Shown: piece by piece, positions 3,413 through 10,174 of the stretch
Numbering within the stretch: the first letter of the stretch is position 1
Layout: every line of letters begins with the position of its first letter
Source of the DNA: Okeania sp.
GTDB lineage: Bacteria > Cyanobacteriota > Cyanobacteriia > Cyanobacteriales > Microcoleaceae
Length of the DNA stretch: 10,174 nt
Assembly (NCBI RefSeq): GCF_035285525.1
Contig: NZ_JAYKGW010000130.1
Span: 1 to 10,174, forward strand
Direction of reading: 5' to 3'
Notes under the pieces: generated by a model
Database searches by the model: none
Seen by the model: the letters and a program-made list of their open reading frames with translations, nothing else
Told to the model about the DNA's origin: nothing
Position numbers and translations under genes: made by a program

Positions 3413-3811
3413 ATGACACTAGAATTTCCAGATGACCTTAAATACTTGGAAACCCATGAGTATGTAAGGATGGATGGCGAAATTGCCACCATTGGTATTA
3501 CTGCTTTTGCTATTGAACAATTGGGAGATATTGTATTTCTGGAGCTTCCAGAGGAGGGAGACCAAATAGAAAAAGAAGGGTCTTGTGGCAGTATCGAATC
3601 TGTGAAGGCAGTTGAAGACCTAAAAGCTCCTATTACTGGTACGGTAGTAGAGCGTAATGAGGAGATATTAGAAAGTCCAGAGAGGTTATCAGAAGAAGAC
3701 CCATACATAGAGGGTTGGTTGTTGAAAGTTCGTGTTAAAGATTCTGATGAACTAGAGGGAGAAGATGTTTACTCTGCTGACCAATATCGCGAGCTGGTAG
3801 AAGGAGAATAG
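3413..3811 (+). CDS. gcvH: Glycine cleavage system H protein (lipoyl carrier)
   Basis: 132-aa ORF of typical H-protein length. Motifs [32 protein letters not shown], and the lipoyl-lysine motif [11 protein letters not shown] (Lys65 codon AAG at 3605-3607). GAGGAA lies about 9 nt upstream of the ATG. Confidence 0.95.
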
Positions 3812-3815
3812 AATA

Positions 3816-3836
3816 AATAATTGATAATTGATAATT
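3816..3836. repeat. Heptamer tandem repeat (AATAATT GATAATT GATAATT)
   Basis: Read directly, just after the gcvH stop. Confidence 0.8.
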
Positions 3837-3920
3837 AGGGCTGGCTGATTAAATATAAAAGCACTATTCAATCAAGGTTTTAGCCTTTTTAAGTCCTGAT
3901 TTCTCGGAAACCGTCATTTC

Positions 3921-3944
3921 AGTTATCAGTTATCAGTTATCAGT
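3921..3944. repeat. Heptamer tandem repeat (AGTTATC x3 plus AGT)
   Basis: Read directly. It is the reverse complement of the TGATAAC-type heptamers at 2441-2461 and 9849-9876. Confidence 0.85.
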
Positions 3945-3954
3945 AGAGAGTGAA

Positions 3955-4037
3955 CCTCCGACTAAACTCGGAGGCTTGAAATACTGAGTTAAAATTTTTT
4001 CATCCCCGAACCAGGGGAGGCTTTATACCTCTTTTTT
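3955..4037 (+). terminator. Hairpin cluster downstream of gcvH; the last hairpin is followed by T6 (weak candidate intrinsic terminator)
   Basis: CCTCCGA-CTAAAC-TCGGAGG (3955-3974, perfect 7-bp stem). CCCC-GAACCA-GGGG (4004-4017). GAGG-CTTTATA-CCTC (4017-4031) followed by TTTTTT (4032-4037). The terminal stem is only 4-5 bp. Confidence 0.25.
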
Positions 4038-4366
4038 CGTAAAAGTACCTATTTTTTTGCTCTTGTCGTCTCGAAATGGCAGAGTTTTGGCACTAACAAT
4101 CAGAAAATTTGGCCGTAGCAAATAGTCTAAACTCTTCCCTTGCTTCACTAGCAGACTTCCATACCCAAACCCTAAAGTGTGGGAAGTGTGGCGAGGGCAC
4201 ATGGCCCTTCGCCCATACTAAGCGGCTGTGCGTAAGCTCTGATAAAGTTATAGTTATTTTTTCTTAGTTGAGGAGGCGATCGCCTCCATAAACTTTACTT
4301 TTCCTGTCATAAACTGACTCAGAAGGAGAATTGAATAAACTACAGTTCTTGTTATGAAAGGTTTCT

Positions 4367-4787
4367 TTAAAATTCTAGAAACTGACGAGAAGCATGACGA
4401 ATATGCAAAATATAAACAATTGATTCTGATACTGTCAGGACTTACGCAGATGAACTCAGAAACCGGGTTTCTCGTGGACTTCTATTGCTTAAAACAACGA
4501 TTTGTCCTAGAAACCGGGTTCCTCCCGTGTAAGTCCTAACTGTAAAAAGTATCCGATCAGCTCCACATCCTTTCCCATATAAAAGTTGGCAAATTTCTTG
4601 AGAAGAATCAACATTTTCTGGTGCTAGAGAACAACGCTTTGGACTATTACTTCAGGTATCAATCCCATCCATTAAGACCATCAAATCATTTTTCAGCCTG
4701 TTCTTTCGATAGTTGTTCCATCATCCACAAATACACTTCTTCAACTTCTACTGAAGCATCATCTGCTATTTCAATTTTATATTTTAT
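4367..4787 (-). pseudogene. parE: ParE/RelE-family toxin pseudogene, partner of the adjacent antitoxin, disrupted by stops, a frameshift and a MITE
   Basis: Manual minus-strand translation gives (I)KYKIEIADDASVEVEEVYLWMMEQLSKEQAEK*FDGL. After a 1-nt shift it continues MDGIDT*SNSPKRCSLAPENVDSSQEICQLLYGKGCGADRILFTV. Then comes the MITE, followed by SESIVYILHIRHASRQFLEF*. This is the classic ParE pattern (P.RC.LAPE, EI.QLLYGK, RILF, V.ILHIRH..R). Lesions: ATA where ATG is expected (4785-4787), TGA at 4686-4688 and 4652-4654, a frameshift near 4673, and an insertion at 4436-4538. Confidence 0.8.
4436..4538. mobile_element. 103-bp MITE of the AGGACTTACGCA-TIR family inserted into the parE remnant, with a 5-bp target-site duplication
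   Basis: Ends are CAGGACTTACGCA (4436-4448) and GTGTAAGTCCTA (4527-4538). It is flanked by ACTGT at 4431-4435 and 4539-4543. Removing the element plus one ACTGT restores a continuous ParE reading frame. Internal palindromes AGAAACCGGGTTTCT and AGAAACCGGGTTCCT are present. Confidence 0.8.
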
Positions 4788-5061
4788 ACTTTTGTTTAAT
4801 TTTGGTCAATGTTTCTCTAGCTGGAGATGTGCGTCCTTCTTTTACAGCTTTTAGTCCAGTTTCAATGCCTTTAACAGCTTGAATATAATCAAGCATTTCC
4901 AGCATTTTTTGATATGATTCAGGAGTTTGAACTACTGCTTCTGGTTTGCCGTTAACAGTGAGTATCAGTGGGTGTCCAGTTTGTTTAATTCGCTCTAAAT
5001 ATTCAGCAGTATTGCGCTTGAAATTGGTAAGAGAATCAATGTCTTGAGTTATGTCTAGCAT
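4777..5061 (-). CDS. Type II antitoxin, Phd/YefM family (intact)
   Basis: 94-aa ORF. N-terminal Phd/YefM pattern SLTNFKRNTAEYLERIKQTGHPLILTVNGKPEAVVQTPESYQKMLE. Its stop codon overlaps the start region of the downstream ParE-like frame, the usual antitoxin-toxin operon layout. Confidence 0.85.
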   Translation of the reverse strand: MLDITQDIDSLTNFKRNTAEYLERIKQTGHPLILTVNGKPEAVVQTPESYQKMLEMLDYIQAVKGIETGLKAVKEGRTSPARETLTKIKQKYKI

Positions 5062-5155
5062 CTTTGAAATTTTATTAACAAATACTATTTCACATCATAT
5101 TAGCATTTTTTTAGATGTTTTTTCCAGAAACCGACTTTATCCACGACAATTCCTC

Positions 5156-5246
5156 ATAACTTACGCAGCGACCCTAGATATAGTGCTTAAAACCCCATAC
5201 GCAATAGTTAAAAAACTCTATATCATAGTACATTTCCCTAAGTCCT
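5156..5246. mobile_element. Degenerate 91-bp copy of the same MITE family
   Basis: Left end ATAACTTACGCA (5156-5167) compared with consensus AGGACTTACGCA. Right end CCCTAAGTCCT (5236-5246) compared with TGCGTAAGTCCT. Its length is similar to the 94- and 103-bp copies. Confidence 0.35.
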
Positions 5247-5263
5247 GTTCCTCTTACTCTTCC

Positions 5264-5335
5264 CCACAATCCCCACACTCCTCACACTCCTCACACTCCC
5301 CACACTTCCCACACCTCCTACACCTCCCACACTCC
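5264..5335. repeat. 9-bp tandem repeat, 8 units (consensus CCACACTCC), 73 nt upstream of the gcvP start
   Basis: Units read in register: CCACAATCC CCACACTCC TCACACTCC TCACACTCC CCACACTTC CCACACCTC CTACACCTC CCACACTCC. This array generates the spurious ORF 5051-5425 (SPHSSHSSHSPHFPH...). Confidence 0.9.
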
Positions 5336-5408
5336 TCCTTCCTTGCATTAAGTTATGAATTTTTGTTACAACTTAATGATAAATTGATTTCAAGGAAAAT
5401 ACAGAATA

Positions 5409-8400
5409 GTGGTAGCAATACATAAATCTCATACAAAATCAAGTCACCAAGTACCAGAAGCCAACAAAGGCCAAAAGTCAACGGACTTTTCCCAACGACA
5501 TATTGGCCCTACCTCTGACAAAATTCAACAAATGTTGGCCATCTTAGGTATTTCATCCCTAAATGACCTAATTGACAAAACAGTACCCGAAAAAATTCGA
5601 TACCAGCAACCCCTCAATTTGCCCAAGTCTCTGAGTGAAAGTGATGCTCTTGCGCAAATTAAAGAAATAATCTCCAAAAATCAGGTATTTCGTTCCTTTA
5701 TTGGTATGGGTTATTACGACTGTATTACCCCACCAGTTATCCTCCGCAATATTCTCGAAAATCCTGGTTGGTATACCGCTTATACTCCCTATCAAGCAGA
5801 AATAGCTCAAGGACGAATGGAAGCATTACTGAATTTCCAAACTATGATAACAGACTTAACTGGTTTGGAAATAGCTAACGCTTCCCTGCTTGATGAAGGG
5901 ACAGCAGCAGCAGAAGCAATGAGTATGACTTACGGTTTATGCAAAACTAAAGCAGAAACTTTTTTTGTTGACACTAACTGCCATCCTCAGAATATTGAAG
6001 TTGTCAAAACTCGCGCCCAACCATTGGGAATAGAAGTTATTGTCGGCGACTTCCGGACTTTTACTTTTGACAAACCAATTTTTGGCGCACTCCTCCAATA
6101 TCCTGCTACGGACGGCGCAATATATGACTACCGCGACTTTGTGGCAAGAGTTCACGAAGTCGGAGGTTTAGTAACTGTTGCTGCTGACTTACTCAGTTTA
6201 ACTTTACTAACACCTCCTGGAGAATTTGGTGCTGATGTTGCTGTGGGTAATACTCAACGTTTTGGTGTTTCTCTAGGATACGGCGGTCCCCATGCTGCTT
6301 ACTTTGCGACAAAGGAAGCTTTTAAACGCCAAACTCCAGGACGTATTATTGGGGTTTCTCAAGATGCTAATGGCAACTCAGCCTTACGGTTGGCGTTGCA
6401 AACACGGGAACAACATATTCGTCGGGAGAAGGCAACCAGTAATATTTGTACTGCTCAAGTTTTGCTAGCGGTGATGGCAAGTATGTATGCAGTTTATCAC
6501 GGTCCTGATGGTTTAAAAGAAATTGCCGAAAATATTCATAATTTAACTGTAGAGTTGGCAACAGGTTTAAAACAACTTGGTTATCAAGTTGGTGCAGAAC
6601 CATTTTTTGATACTCTTCGGATAACAGTCGATGCTGACTCTCGTCTGAAAACGGCGAAAGAAGTTATAGATGCTGCTGAAAGTGTAGGGATTAATTTGCG
6701 AACTATTGATGAGCAAACGGTTGGTATTTCTCTAGATGAAACTAAAACTGAGAAAGATGTACAAAGTCTGTGGCAAATTTTTGCTGGTGGAGAAAAGTTG
6801 CCAGATATCGAAAAAAACACTTCCCCCCTTTTAAAGGAAACCCAAAACACTCCTCCTTTTTCCAAGGAAACCCAAAACACTCCTCCTTTTTCCAAGGAAA
6901 CCCAAAACACTCCTCCTTTTTCCAAGGAAACCCAAAACACTCCCCCTTTTTCCAAGGAAACCCAAAACACTCCTCCTTTTTCCAAGGAAACCCAAAACAC
7001 TCCTCCTTTTTCCAAGGAAACCCAAAATACTCCTCCTTTTTCCAAGGAAACCCAAAATACTCCTCCTTTTTCCAAGGAAACCCAAAACACTCCCCCCCTT
7101 TCAAAGGGGGGTAAGGGGGGATTCACCCGCACCAGCAGTTATCTAACTCATCCAGTATTTAACAGTTATCATTCTGAGACCGAACTATTGCGTTACATCC
7201 ATCGTTTACAAGCAAAAGATTTGTCTTTGACAACATCAATGATACCCTTGGGTTCCTGTACAATGAAACTCAATGCAACAGCAGAAATGATACCTGTTAC
7301 CTGGCCGGAATTTGCCCAAATTCATCCTTTTGCTCCCACAGCTCAAACTCAGGGTTATCAAATAATGTTTGAGCAATTAGAGCAATGGTTAGCAGAAATC
7401 ACAGGTTATTCAGCAATTTCTCTGCAACCAAATGCAGGTTCCCAAGGAGAATATACAGGTTTATTAGTGATTCGGGAATATCATGCTCACCGTGGGGAAG
7501 CGCATCGGAATGTTTGTTTAATTCCTGATTCTGCTCACGGAACAAATCCTGCTTCAGCAGTGATGAGTGGTTTAAAAGTTGTCGTTGTTAAATGCGATAA
7601 ACAAGGAAATATAGATATGGCAGATTTGCAGAAAAAGGCAGAAAAGCACAAAGATAATTTGGCTGCCATGATGATTACTTATCCTTCTACTCACGGTGTA
7701 TTTGAGGAAGACATTGTTGACATCTGTGAAATTATCCACGGTTTTGGTGGGCAAGTTTACATGGATGGAGCAAATATGAATGCGCAAGTGGGGTTATGTC
7801 GTCCTGCGGAAATCGGTGCGGATGTTTGTCACTTGAATTTGCATAAAACTTTCTGTATTCCTCACGGTGGTGGCGGTCCGGGAATGGGTCCGATTGGGGT
7901 TAAGTCTCATTTAGCACCGTTTTTACCAGGGCATTCTGTGATTAATATTGGTGGCGAAAATTCTAGTGGAGCGGTATCTGCTGCACCTTGGGGTAGTGCG
8001 AGTATTTTGCCTATTTCTTGGATGTATATTGCCATGATGGGTCCGGATGGTTTGACTGATGCAACTAAGATCGCGATTTTGAATGCTAATTATATTGCGC
8101 AACGGTTGGATAATTATTATCCAGTTTTGTACAAAGGTAAGCATGGATTTATTGCTCACGAGTGCATTTTGGATTTGCGTCCGTTGAAAAAGTCTGCTGG
8201 TATTGAGGTAGATGATATTGCGAAACGGTTGATGGATTATGGTTTTCACGCGCCAACGGTTTCTTGGCCGGTAGCAGGTACTATTATGGTGGAACCGACA
8301 GAAAGTGAGTCTAAAGAGGAGTTAGATCGTTTTTGTGATGCCATGATTTCTATTCGTCAGGAAATAGAGGAAATTGAAACTGGTAAAGCAGATAAACAGG

Positions 8401-8603
8401 ATAATTTGTTGAAAAATGCGCCTCATACTGCTGAGAGTTTGATGGTGGATGAGTGGAAGCATAGTTATTCTCGACAACGTGCTGCTTATCCTGCTCCTTG
8501 GACGCGAGAACATAAATTTTGGCCGACTGTAGGGCGAGTTGATAATGCTTTTGGCGATCGCAACTTTGTCTGTTCTTGTTTGCCGATAGAAGCATATACT
8601 TAG
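5409..8603 (+). CDS. gcvP: Glycine dehydrogenase (aminomethyl-transferring), glycine cleavage system P protein, single-chain form with a repeat insertion
   Basis: 1064-aa ORF with GTG start (AAGGA 9-16 nt upstream). No ATG precedes the conserved N-terminal FSQRHIGP motif. Conserved blocks include [61 protein letters not shown], and the PLP-lysine motif [24 protein letters not shown] (Lys codon 7845-7847). Confidence 0.95.
6811..7110 (+). repeat. In-frame 30-bp tandem repeat inside gcvP: 8 near-identical units (6841-7080) plus degenerate flanking units
   Basis: Unit CCCAAAACACTCCTCCTTTTTCCAAGGAAA was read eight times. The only differences are at 6944, 7028 and 7058. It encodes [10 protein letters not shown] x8, flanked by KNTSPLLKE and [11 protein letters not shown]. 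Confidence 0.95.
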
Positions 8604-8687
8604 GTAGCACAGGCATCTTGCCTGTTGCGTAGCCAAATTTTTAGGGTGCGTTAGACGGCTAAATTTTAGACTCTGAAAGAGATTTAG
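8525..8687 (+). repeat. Direct repeat copy A: the last 79 nt of gcvP plus 84 nt downstream
   Basis: It aligns by eye with 9987-10174. The coding part matches at 73 of 79 positions. The downstream part is collinear, with a few substitutions and one indel of about 24 nt. Confidence 0.9.
8607..8628 (+). terminator. Stem-loop just after the gcvP stop (possible terminator or dispersed-repeat hairpin)
   Basis: GCACAGGCA-TCT-TGCCTGTTGC, a 9-bp stem with one bulge. It is not followed directly by a T run (AAATTTTT begins about 7 nt later). The hairpin shape resembles ACAGCCT-TCT-AGGCTGT in the 46-bp repeat. Confidence 0.3.
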
Positions 8688-8887: not shown

Positions 8888-9787
8888 ATGTTGACAAATA
8901 CAAATACAAAGATAGAGATACAACCATTCTCAGAAAATGTAGGTAGAAAAATTATTAATACAGAAAATGCAAGTATTTTAGAAATCAACAAAGAAGAAGT
9001 TATTAATTTGTTTAAATCTTATGGTTTTTTACTTTTTAGAGGTTTTGAAACTGATGTTAATACTTTTGCAGAATTTAGTAATTCACTGAGTAATGGTTTT
9101 ATGGATTACACTGGAGGTGCTATAAATCGGAGAATAATCAATGAGGATGGAACTATATTAACTGTTAATGATTTTAAGGATGAAATGAAACTACATGGAG
9201 AAATGTACTATATAAAAAAACCTCCGCAGATAGTTTGGTTTTTTTGTGCTAATCCACCTTTAAAAGATGGAGAAACAACAATATGTGATGGTGAGCAATT
9301 TTTCCATGAACTTAGTAATTCAATGAAAGATTTATTGAGGAGGAAGAAATTAAAGTTTCCTGGTCGTTTAAAAAAAGAAGATTGGCAAAATAAATACAAA
9401 ACTAATGATTTGAATGTGGTTAAAGAGATATGTGAAAGTCAAGGTAGGGAGGTTCAAATTAACGAAGATGAATCAATTGATTTTAAATTTATCTGTTCGG
9501 CAATACATAAAAGTAGAACTGAACAAAAAGATGTTTTTATTAATAGTTTATTACAGGCAAAAAAGGTAAATCCCAAAAGTGTATGTTTTGATGATGATTC
9601 CGAAATAACTGATGAAATAATGTCAGAATTAAATGAAATTGCTGAAAAAATAACTATAGAAATAAACTGGCAAAAGGGGGATATTTTGATGATTGATAAT
9701 ACGAGAATTATGCACGGTAGAAGAGCTTTTTATGATGACCAACGAGATATTTATGTTCGGTTGTGTTTTCCAGCATTTCCATTTTAA
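8888..9787 (+). CDS. TauD/TfdA-family Fe(II)/2-oxoglutarate-dependent dioxygenase (orphan; substrate unknown)
   Basis: 299-aa ORF. Facial-triad-like H-x-E in MKLHGEMYY. Family block PPQIVWFFCANPPLKDGETTICDG. C-terminal block GDILMIDNTRIMHGRRAF carries the distal His and Arg. Confidence 0.75.
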   Translation: MLTNTNTKIEIQPFSENVGRKIINTENASILEINKEEVINLFKSYGFLLFRGFETDVNTFAEFSNSLSNGFMDYTGGAINRRIINEDGTILTVNDFKDEMKLHGEMYYIKKPPQIVWFFCANPPLKDGETTICDGEQFFHELSNSMKDLLRRKKLKFPGRLKKEDWQNKYKTNDLNVVKEICESQGREVQINEDESIDFKFICSAIHKSRTEQKDVFINSLLQAKKVNPKSVCFDDDSEITDEIMSELNEIAEKITIEINWQKGDILMIDNTRIMHGRRAFYDDQRDIYVRLCFPAFPF

Positions 9788-9848
9788 CCCACATTCCGCA
9801 CTTCAAAAAGATGTCTAACATTATCGGTGCGTTACGCTTACTGAACTG

Positions 9849-9876
9849 CTGATAACTAATAACTGATAACTGAAAA
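9849..9876. repeat. Heptamer tandem repeat (CTGATAA CTAATAA CTGATAA CTGAAAA)
   Basis: Read directly, downstream of the dioxygenase gene. Confidence 0.85.
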
Positions 9877-9926
9877 GGCGATATCGCTCATTTTCATATT
9901 TCCCAGAAAAAAATTTGAGTAAAGGG

Positions 9927-9986: not shown

Positions 9987-10065
9987 GACTGTAGGGAAAG
10001 TTGATAATGCTTTTAGCGATCGTAACTTTGTCTGTTCTTGTTTGCCGATAGAAGCTTATAGTTAG
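9987..10065 (+). pseudogene. gcvP: Relic of the gcvP 3' end (last 25 codons plus stop), detached from any gcvP body
   Basis: It translates as [25 protein letters not shown]. The genuine gcvP C-terminus at 8526-8603 is [25 protein letters not shown]. There are six nucleotide differences in 79 nt. Sequence upstream of 9987 is unrelated to gcvP. Confidence 0.85.
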
Positions 10066-10174
10066 GTAGCACAGGCATCCTGCCTGTTCCCTAGCCAAAA
10101 TTTGTAGGGTGCGTTGGCGCGCTCTTTGCGGACATAAAAAGACGGACTAAATTTAGACTATGAAAGAGATTCAG
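9987..10174 (+). repeat. Direct repeat copy B (partner of 8525-8687), running to the window end
   Basis: See copy A. Copy B carries GGCGCGCTCTTTGCGGACATAAAA after GGGTGCGTT, which copy A lacks. Confidence 0.9.

Follow-up and report, generated by a model that had tools for sequence, protein, structure and literature searches.

The glycine decarboxylase P-protein gene (gcvP) of an Okeania species carries, at the junction of the two halves of the enzyme, an in-frame minisatellite of probably ten 30-nucleotide units. The last of these units holds a short G/C-rich palindrome that belongs to a dispersed repeat family. We studied this gene in a stretch of 10,174 nucleotides, hereafter the window, which is the entire contig NZ_JAYKGW010000130.1 of a draft assembly (GCF_035285525.1, Okeania sp.). 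We consider it likely that one copy of the dispersed module came to lie in frame in the GcvP linker, that it was then eroded or amplified depending on the lineage, reaching ten units here, and that it is carried as a tolerated passenger. In what follows we describe the array and its host gene, the state of the same site in related genomes, the module family, the probable mode of growth and the competing explanations.

Anatomy of the array

The features on which the argument rests are as follows.

5409 to 8603, plus strand: gcvP coding sequence, 1064 amino acids, GTG start, single-chain glycine decarboxylase P-protein
5493 to 6782, plus strand: N-terminal (alpha-like) half of GcvP, residues 29-458, matched by Pfam GDC-P and by 1WYT chain A
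6810 to 6839, plus strand: left unit of the array, older and degenerate (GAA AAA AAC ACT TCC CCC CTT TTA AAG GAA), with its run of six C retained
6840 to 7079, plus strand: eight young 30-nucleotide units in codon register (ACC CAA AAC ACT CCT CCT TTT TCC AAG GAA), from Tandem Repeats Finder and a table of the units
7080 to 7124, plus strand: terminal unit, 15 residues, which holds the intact module, from the sequence and its codon view
7092 to 7120: module resembling a repetitive extragenic palindromic (REP) sequence, made of seven C (7092-7098), the loop TTTCAAA, six G (7106-7111), the spacer TAA and six G (7115-7120)
7119 to 8600, plus strand: C-terminal (beta-like) half of GcvP, residues 571-1064, matched by 4LGL and by 1WYT chain B
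7845 to 7847, plus strand: codon of the pyridoxal phosphate (PLP) lysine K813, in the motif HLNLHKTF
3413 to 3811, plus strand: gcvH (H-protein), Pfam GCV_H with an E-value of 1e-37, syntenic partner of gcvP

Tandem Repeats Finder reports a single strong array at 6814-7107, with a period of 30, 9.8 copies, 95% matches, 0% indels and a score of 502; the overall span is 6810-7124. An earlier reading of the window, made from the sequence alone (the sequence-only reading), had described eight in-frame copies of CCCAAAACACTCCTCCTTTTTCCAAGGAAA at 6841-7080 with a degenerate unit at either side, lying directly before a conserved block of 23 residues, and the repeat finder and our own reading of the letters agree with it. 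Five of the eight core units are identical, one has CCT changed to CCC (T>C) and two have AAC changed to AAT (C>T). The eight thus vary at 3 positions in 240 nucleotides, all of them synonymous, and are about 99% identical.

The units stand head to tail, the period is divisible by three and the reading frame is uninterrupted, as is typical of a coding minisatellite. As 30 nucleotides are ten codons, the frame is kept at any copy number and only the length of the protein is altered. We therefore reject on/off phase variation by the array. The unit is also open in all six frames, which only 0.8% of random 30-mers at the composition of the window would be, and this accounts for spurious overlapping open reading frames (ORFs) on both strands.

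The module at 7092-7120 consists of a G/C hairpin of 8 bp and, after it, another G run, and is the sole C-run/G-run hairpin found in the window. RNA folding gives this hairpin about -17 kcal/mol. Neither the array nor the module folds more stably than the shuffled controls, with z between +0.5 and -1.1, and a control with G/C runs is in any event a weak one. A scan of the window with Rfam returned no family match relevant to the module.

The host gene and its protein

The GcvP of the window is exactly WP_324236951.1 (MEB3341526.1) of Okeania sp., and it matches the Pfam families GDC-P (PF02347, 668 bits, E-value 8e-201) and GcvP2_C (PF21478, 210 bits, E-value 8e-63). The Synechocystis P-protein (4LGL) aligns in two stretches with 1505 bits, residues 24-467 of our protein to 30-469 and residues 571-1063 to 484-980, and the linker between the halves has 103 residues in the window GcvP against 14 in 4LGL. 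In Thermus thermophilus (1WYT) the enzyme is split into two subunits, where subunit 1 (chain A) matches residues 35-403 and subunit 2 (chain B) residues 590-985. These matches bear out the earlier proposal that the array occupies the linker between the alpha-like and beta-like halves, where other bacteria split the enzyme into GcvPA and GcvPB.

Against five orthologues, the ratio of nonsynonymous to synonymous substitutions (dN/dS) runs from 0.11 to 0.13 in the N-terminal half and from 0.04 to 0.08 in the C-terminal one, and dS is 0.36-0.67. H812, K813 and T814 are invariant in 36 sequences and the HLNLHKTF motif is intact. The gene order MazG, alpha/beta hydrolase, gcvH, gcvP is common to the window and to the loci L002 and L005, and a third locus (L003) starts with the hydrolase gene and continues with gcvH and gcvP in this order. 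Given the low dN/dS, the synteny with gcvH and the intact PLP motif, gcvP in the window is a working orthologue with both halves under strong purifying selection. The reading of the gene as a pseudogene or decaying paralogue is rejected by dN/dS values of 0.04-0.13. The nearest relatives of this GcvP are found in Okeania, Trichodesmium, Dapis and Hydrocoleum (Microcoleaceae), and not in the Nostocales that had been suggested for comparison. The description of GcvP as essential, used in the sequence-only reading, is doubtful for cyanobacteria; Hagemann and colleagues (2005) are reported to have found the glycine decarboxylase complex dispensable in Synechocystis.

Translation would turn the array into a loop of about 100 residues in which Pro, Thr, Gln, Asn, Ser, Lys and Glu abound. 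For the segment in question (residues 468-570) Pfam gives only a sub-threshold match to Extensin_1, 30 bits against a cut-off of 105, and this match reflects composition. An exhaustive HMMER search with the same residues returned 257 matches, and the top ones that we inspected are unrelated decapeptide repeats, matched by their periodicity. A word-index protein search with the array peptide produced no candidates, but it also missed a protein (P0001) that shares 11 residues with the array, so that this negative carries no information. We considered and rejected two ways in which the insertion might be removed or bypassed. An intein or other self-excising insertion fails as the segment is a decapeptide repeat with no splicing or endonuclease domain, and an internal restart that would split GcvP fails as there is no in-frame start codon close to the array.

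The array may be tolerated because the alpha/beta junction needs no covalent continuity, the 1WYT enzyme being split there. It is most likely a near-neutral, length-variable passenger, for which there is no evidence of a dedicated function.

Linker states in related genomes

The same site in orthologous gcvP genes, read in protein and DNA, holds an eroded linker or 1, 2, 5 or 10 units. The states in the close relatives are as follows.

Eroded linker: ENENISPVSQSAYA, in Trichodesmium erythraeum IMS101 and Dapis M126
Intermediate linker with a single G run: NISLVQEGGSHS, in locus L009
One unit: ENENTPPLTKGGQGG and similar, in P0011, P0005 and L005
Two units: P0003, Dapis M229 (L002), L003 and P0043
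Five units: GNTFPLSKE followed by three copies of TENIPPLSKE and 14 residues, in Okeania SIO3I5 (L001)
Ten units: the GcvP of the window

Comparison between genomes shows that the proteins with 1, 2, 5 and 10 units are 92-97% identical outside the linker. The eroded alleles match the one-unit allele codon by codon, minus four codons, and are therefore decayed versions of it and not empty sites. In two sequences from outside the clade (P0052 and L011) there is nothing module-like in the linker. The suggestion that the array is lineage-specific is thus upheld, with eroded linkers or 1, 2 or 5 units in the close relatives. The distance between the conserved motifs DET and HSET gives a wider view, for which we drew on a scan of genome contigs with the GcvP protein; the matches listed there come mostly from distant genomes, and none is from Okeania. 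At 55 other loci with a readable motif pair it is mostly 55-62 residues and at most 84, while it is 100 residues in Okeania SIO3I5 and 149 in the window.

The GcvP linker is length-variable across the phylum. In Floridaenema aerugineum (L012) it has a small in-frame duplication, VGVIHECVGVIHE. The linkers of L055, L058 and L071 contain repeat-derived or duplicated peptides, among them NSKFKILNSEFKI and a duplicated block FLQH.VFN.Y. Repeat insertion seems to favour the alpha/beta junction of GcvP in general.

A dispersed family of palindromic modules

The 3' end of every gcvP array, as well as the one-unit alleles P0005 and P0011, encodes PPL[STA]KGG[QK]GG. At the four array-bearing loci for which we have DNA the underlying sequence is ACT CCC CCC CTT nnn AAG GGG GGT [C/A]AG GGG GGA, and in L005 the first G run of the module has decayed. 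The consensus of the wider family is CCCCCC-TTnnnAA-GGGGGG-TTA-GGGGGG-ATC. We searched for it with the 28-nucleotide pattern CCCCCCTTNNNAAGGGGGGTNAGGGGGG, in which 25 bases are specified, so that chance matches are negligible.

Metagenome contigs contain at least 134 copies of this pattern in at least 120 stretches. The counts that follow are among the matches listed, over 134 copies or over the 128 with enough upstream flank. The cyanobacterial motif HIP1, present on most of these module-bearing contigs, occurs in them at about 6 sites per 10 kb, and they are therefore largely cyanobacterial. Closer to the window, the gcvP locus of Okeania SIO3I5 has three more strict copies and one variant with five C and five G within 15 kb, on both strands and between or outside the called genes. 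In 1.49 Mb around gcvP in 80 other genomes there is no strict copy, whereas 67 kb of Okeania and Dapis loci contain 6.

Most of the metagenome copies lie in spans without a long ORF, and 19 of 134 in open spans of at least 200 codons. The spacer TTA and the downstream ATC are found in 117 of 128. An inverted partner upstream, forming a double hairpin of 73-79 bp with a modal total of 78 bp, accompanies 44 of 128. This composite form, GATCCCCC(C)TAA...TTAGGGGGGATC, is about 78 bp long and has ends resembling terminal inverted repeats; the gcvP module is a singlet, corresponding to one end of it. The module ends, ...T(T/C)CCCCCC and GGGGGGATC, carry neither a GTAG nor a CGTC tag. The family has the main properties of REP and REPIN sequences, that is, many dispersed, mostly extragenic G/C-rich palindromes which also occur as inverted doublets.

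The copies in gcvP have the spacer TAA or TCA, not TTA. In the gcvP frame TTA would give GGT TAG, a stop, which TAA and TCA avoid. For 7 of the 12 metagenome copies with a spacer other than TTA, the longest open frame is the same frame as in gcvP. Furthermore, the module is built from CCC and GGG, which in the rest of gcvP make up 11-18% of Pro codons and 4-12% of Gly codons, and in the young internal units of the window array CCC CCC has changed to the preferred CCT CCT. From its codons the module looks foreign to gcvP. Four lineages agree at 7 of 7 of its fourfold-degenerate sites, whereas in the remainder of gcvP they agree at 50% of 358 (P about 0.0075). We found no paper that mentions the module sequence or its translations when we searched the literature with DNA and peptide strings.

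How the array grew

The internal gcvP units consist of the 5' hairpin arm, the loop and about 15 nucleotides of adjoining coding sequence resembling the ENxNT codons upstream. Both G runs are missing from these units, and the whole module is present in the last unit only. Half-module internal units fit local duplication followed by slippage or unequal exchange, and not repeated transposition. Here our results depart from the sequence-only reading, in which the G/C-run flanks looked like the two halves of a palindromic element, with amplification of its interior as one possible history. The flanking runs do belong to a dispersed palindromic element, as the copies in Okeania SIO3I5 and in the metagenomes attest. 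They do not enclose the array as two halves, however. All of the module is found at the 3' end (7092-7120); the left flank is a degenerate unit of greater age, with the first unit of L001 as its orthologue; and the amplified part is the 5' arm and loop with the adjoining 15 or so nucleotides. The near-identity on which the sequence-only reading based a recent expansion holds. The units are about 99% identical, with dS of at least 0.36 to the nearest relatives, so the array is either recent or is being homogenised.

Units are more similar within a lineage than to those of the orthologues, with TCA in the window and L001, ACY in L002 and GCT in L003. The arrays have therefore expanded independently or been homogenised. 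The leftmost units of the window (NTSPL) and of L001 (NTFPL, in the first unit GNTFPLSKE) look orthologous, and this suggests that a short array may already have been present in their common ancestor. The L001 array alternates synonymously between AAA and AAG, which suggests growth in two-unit steps.

The tendency to form arrays is not confined to gcvP. Twenty-five of the 134 metagenome modules are in tandem arrays of period at least 20, typically 30-49 nucleotides. Of all bases in these contigs 2.1% fall in arrays of this kind, so that the modules are enriched about 9-fold. Some non-coding arrays repeat the whole module: six copies of 33 nucleotides in L095, 3.5 of 36 in L119 and 3.3 of 31 in L184. 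In-frame modules also occur in other long ORFs, in several frames and both orientations.

Non-ribosomal peptide synthetase (NRPS) adenylation domains (L093/L136 and L099): module in frame
NRPS, L106:5873-11491, minus strand: tandem array of 63-nucleotide units, GIDPPLTPLDKGGDVDVTLDK, between aminotransferase and luciferase-like domains
Pyruvate:ferredoxin oxidoreductase (PFOR), L160: two tandem module copies in frame
EIIA-HPr-PtsI fusion, L188:287-2797, minus strand: 45-nucleotide units, SPPFQEELEEIVKKK, between HPr and EI, ending in SPPFQGGLGG with the intact module last
Mur ligase and a CHAT protein: module in frame

The layout in L188, with the intact module in the last unit, is the same as in gcvP; L188 and L106 both come from metagenomes.

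Taken together, the following history seems likely. A single copy of a REP/REPIN-like module would have been fixed in frame in a surface linker between the GcvP halves, in an ancestor common to the Okeania/Trichodesmium/Dapis clade. Some lineages would then have seen the module erode. In others the 5' arm, the loop and about 15 nucleotides of adjoining codons would have been duplicated as a 30-nucleotide (or 33-nucleotide) unit, after which the array may have grown and shrunk by replication slippage or unequal recombination. On the Okeania contig studied here it would have reached ten units.

Alternative explanations

Several of our results weigh against this history or parts of it. The one-unit linkers, at 57-59 residues, are no longer than the 55-62 of other cyanobacteria. 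The module therefore replaced native linker codons and was not simply added to them. Module-bearing and eroded alleles are scattered over the protein tree, and this pattern needs repeated erosion, recombination or gene conversion. The perfect conservation of synonymous sites in the module, which pure neutrality does not predict, suggests either a constraint at the DNA or RNA level or repeated conversion from the family. The loop is probably disordered, as judged from its composition. An AlphaFold2 model of the full protein from the 36-sequence alignment is poor throughout (mean pLDDT 47, pTM 0.34), and low confidence at the array is therefore uninformative about disorder.

Some of these points can be read as signs that no insertion took place, and that ectopic gene conversion replaced the native linker with sequence from dispersed copies, or convergence made it resemble them, the array being duplicated native codons. 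Linkers of unchanged length, eroded alleles that align over the whole length of the module, the interleaving of the two kinds of allele on the tree and synonymous-site identity of the sort that recurrent conversion would give all speak for this. We think it unlikely nonetheless. Since conversion, too, would draw on the dispersed family for its donor, the sequence derives from the element either way; convergence on 25 of 25 specified bases with rare codons is implausible; and the outgroups P0052 and L011 show nothing similar. It is quite unlikely, too, that the long linker is adaptive, a copy-number-tunable tether for the dimer or for assembly of the complex with the H, T and L proteins, for redox regulation or for localisation, with selection favouring expansion. 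Such a role would agree with the synonymous nature of all three variant positions in the window array and of the AAA/AAG alternation in L001, with the seven conserved fourfold sites, and with the persistence of arrays of at least 2 units in several lineages. It sits badly with copy numbers that range from eroded through 1, 2 and 5 to 10 without phylogenetic pattern. It also conflicts with consensus units that differ between the window and L001 at 3 nonsynonymous and 3 synonymous sites, the peptide thus being weakly constrained, and with the failure of Pfam (Extensin_1 below threshold) and HMMER (unrelated decapeptide repeats) to reveal a domain. Since arrays of the module are also seen outside coding sequence and in unrelated ORFs, the array habit belongs to the DNA element and not to GcvP.

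The two remaining alternatives concern the array itself. It is very unlikely that the array or its copy number is an artefact of a short-read draft assembly. The window being a whole 10-kb contig of such an assembly gives some cause for doubt, as does the partial GcvP of the Okeania sp. SIO3C4 metagenome-assembled genome (P0274), whose contig and protein begin at PLSKGGQGG, inside the module. An identical array was not found in metagenome contigs, where a scan for the array junction gave no match. Yet the longest exact repeat inside the array is 83 nucleotides, and reads of 150 nucleotides or k-mers above about 85 can therefore resolve it. The units differ by position, the flanks are unique and in frame, an artefact is unlikely to keep a reading frame of 3195 nucleotides, and an independent assembly, the 86-kb contig of Okeania SIO3I5, has at this site an array of five units whose sequence is its own. 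That the array exists is secure, and the exact count of ten units is probable from the assembled sequence; the break in P0274 suggests that the module fragments short-read Okeania assemblies. Growth by repeated transposition of the element beside itself, as in REP clusters and bacterial interspersed mosaic elements (BIMEs), is highly improbable. Some non-coding arrays of the family do repeat the whole module (L095, L119 and L184), and clusters formed by insertion next to existing REPINs have been described (PMC3116915). The gcvP units, however, combine the 5' arm and loop with gcvP-specific codons (ETQNT/ETENI) and are missing both G runs, and the strict 30-nucleotide period, the 99% identity and the two-unit alternation in L001 are what slippage or unequal exchange typically produces.

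Comparison with known repeats

A close functional parallel is with the Rickettsia palindromic elements (RPE), which according to the account of Ogata et al. (2000) given in PMC3184786 lie in frame in protein-coding genes and are about 105-146 bp long. Both are dispersed palindromic selfish repeats that lie in frame in the ORFs of otherwise conserved housekeeping proteins, where additional residues can be accommodated. The RPE are alphaproteobacterial, whereas the gcvP module is cyanobacterial, 29 nucleotides long, unrelated in sequence and has seeded a tandem array. Membership of the RPE family is rejected, on the length and host of the module and the lack of an Rfam match, and the resemblance is functional only. 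In-frame palindromic repeats in housekeeping genes are thus known, and a coding minisatellite grown from one is added here.

As G/C-rich stem-loops of 20-40 nucleotides in many copies the modules also resemble REPs and REPINs. REPs have been found inside genes, with clusters encoding 43-82 residues, and fall into two superfamilies tagged GTAG or CGTC (PMC3733652), while REPIN doublets and decayed, immobile singlets have been described in PMC3116915. The inverted doublets of our module measure 73-79 bp, those of Pseudomonas 71 or 110 bp. The module differs in having no GTAG or CGTC tag, and the gcvP array repeats half a module with host codons, not whole REPs. [quoted passage not shown] Okeania is reported to be the most MITE-diverse genus, with about 90% of conserved MITEs intergenic (PMC11602168), and a minisatellite inside a MITE is known from Porphyromonas gingivalis (PMC4596501).

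The gcvP array shares with coding variable number tandem repeats (VNTRs) a period that is a multiple of three, highly identical units and a copy number that differs between related genomes. Bacterial coding VNTRs or minisatellites are mostly found in surface and contingency proteins. The gcvP host, by contrast, is a cytoplasmic enzyme of core metabolism, and the seed is a dispersed element and not native sequence. The small dispersed repeats (SDR) of Nostoc punctiforme, reportedly described by Elhai and colleagues in 2008, are mobile repeats of 21-27 nucleotides, often with hairpins and tandem repeats. They too are very short mobile repeats of filamentous cyanobacteria; the taxa differ and we claim no membership.

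The split GcvPA/GcvPB of T. thermophilus is a parallel on the protein side. The array stands exactly where one subunit ends and the other begins, and this explains why the length of the linker is unconstrained. The Okeania chain, unlike 1WYT, is fused, with neither a stop codon nor a restart.

Other repeats and genes in the window

The window is rich in other repeats. The last 80 or so nucleotides of gcvP, with about 85 nucleotides downstream (8525-8687), are repeated with 83-91% identity at 9987-10174, directly after a gene for a TauD-family dioxygenase (8888-9787). The TauD gene thus looks like a cassette that has on either side a direct repeat of about 165 nucleotides containing a 3' fragment of gcvP. 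The downstream part of the repeat at 8525-8687 includes a GTAG-tagged hairpin, GTAGCACAGGCATCTTGCCTGT. Hairpins with a GTAG tag, GTAGCACAGCCTTCTAGGCTGT, are also present in each of three copies of a 66-nucleotide repeat (82-100% identity) at 2053-2349, between the MazG and hydrolase genes, which resemble the cyanobacterial GTAG REPs of PMC3733652. The GTAG-tagged hairpins at 2053-2349 and about 8603-8640 are of a different family from the gcvP module.

Upstream of gcvP, about 70 nucleotides before the GTG, a 9-nucleotide tandem repeat (TCCCCACAC, about 8 copies, 5252-5341) lies in what is likely the promoter or 5' leader; it produces a spurious 124-aa ORF at 5051-5425 that reads SPHSSHSSHSPH. 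The spacer between gcvH and gcvP (3812-5408) is unlike that of the relatives. It contains a lone antitoxin gene of the Phd/YefM type (4777-5061, minus strand) with no evident toxin partner, where L002, L003 and L005 have an ORF of 115-117 aa and a pentapeptide-repeat gene.

Three copies of an A/T-rich repeat of 65-71 nucleotides, at least 93% identical, are found at 13-233, downstream of a minus-strand gene for a tetratricopeptide repeat (TPR) protein. Heptamer tandem repeats (AATTAAT, TATTGCC, ACTGATA, ATAATTG, TCAGTTA and CTGATAA) occupy intergenic sites at 1998-2029, 2368-2399, 2439-2460, 3817-3836, 3919-3944 and 9849-9873, and bring to mind the short tandemly repeated repeats known from filamentous cyanobacteria; several pair as long-range inverted repeats, e.g. 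3907-3946 with 9846-9885.

Implications

If our interpretation is right, gcvP offers a clean, datable case of selfish repeat DNA that was absorbed into a core metabolic enzyme and expanded to about 9% of the length of the protein without breaking it. The linker between the halves of the P-protein tolerates about 90 extra residues, which is useful for protein engineering, e.g. for the insertion of tags or domains. The array could also serve as a VNTR marker for strain typing in Okeania. Furthermore, the work draws attention to a family of repeats by which assemblies of Okeania and Trichodesmium are fragmented and the lengths of database proteins inflated.

A broader proposal, which we put forward tentatively and regard as possible but doubtful, is that the module is an undescribed REPIN-like mobile element of filamentous cyanobacteria which repeatedly lodges in frame in permissive linkers of large enzymes (GcvP, NRPS, PFOR, PtsI and Mur ligase) and, being inherently prone to amplify in tandem, seeds coding minisatellites. 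In that case the perfect synonymous-site conservation of the module in gcvP would be a sign of continuing conversion from the family or of a role at the DNA or RNA level. Should the wider pattern in NRPS, PFOR and PtsI hold, it would amount to a mechanism of linker evolution in repeat-rich cyanobacteria, and a REPIN-like element of this kind would provide a general route from selfish DNA to the length-variable, disordered linkers of cyanobacterial proteins.

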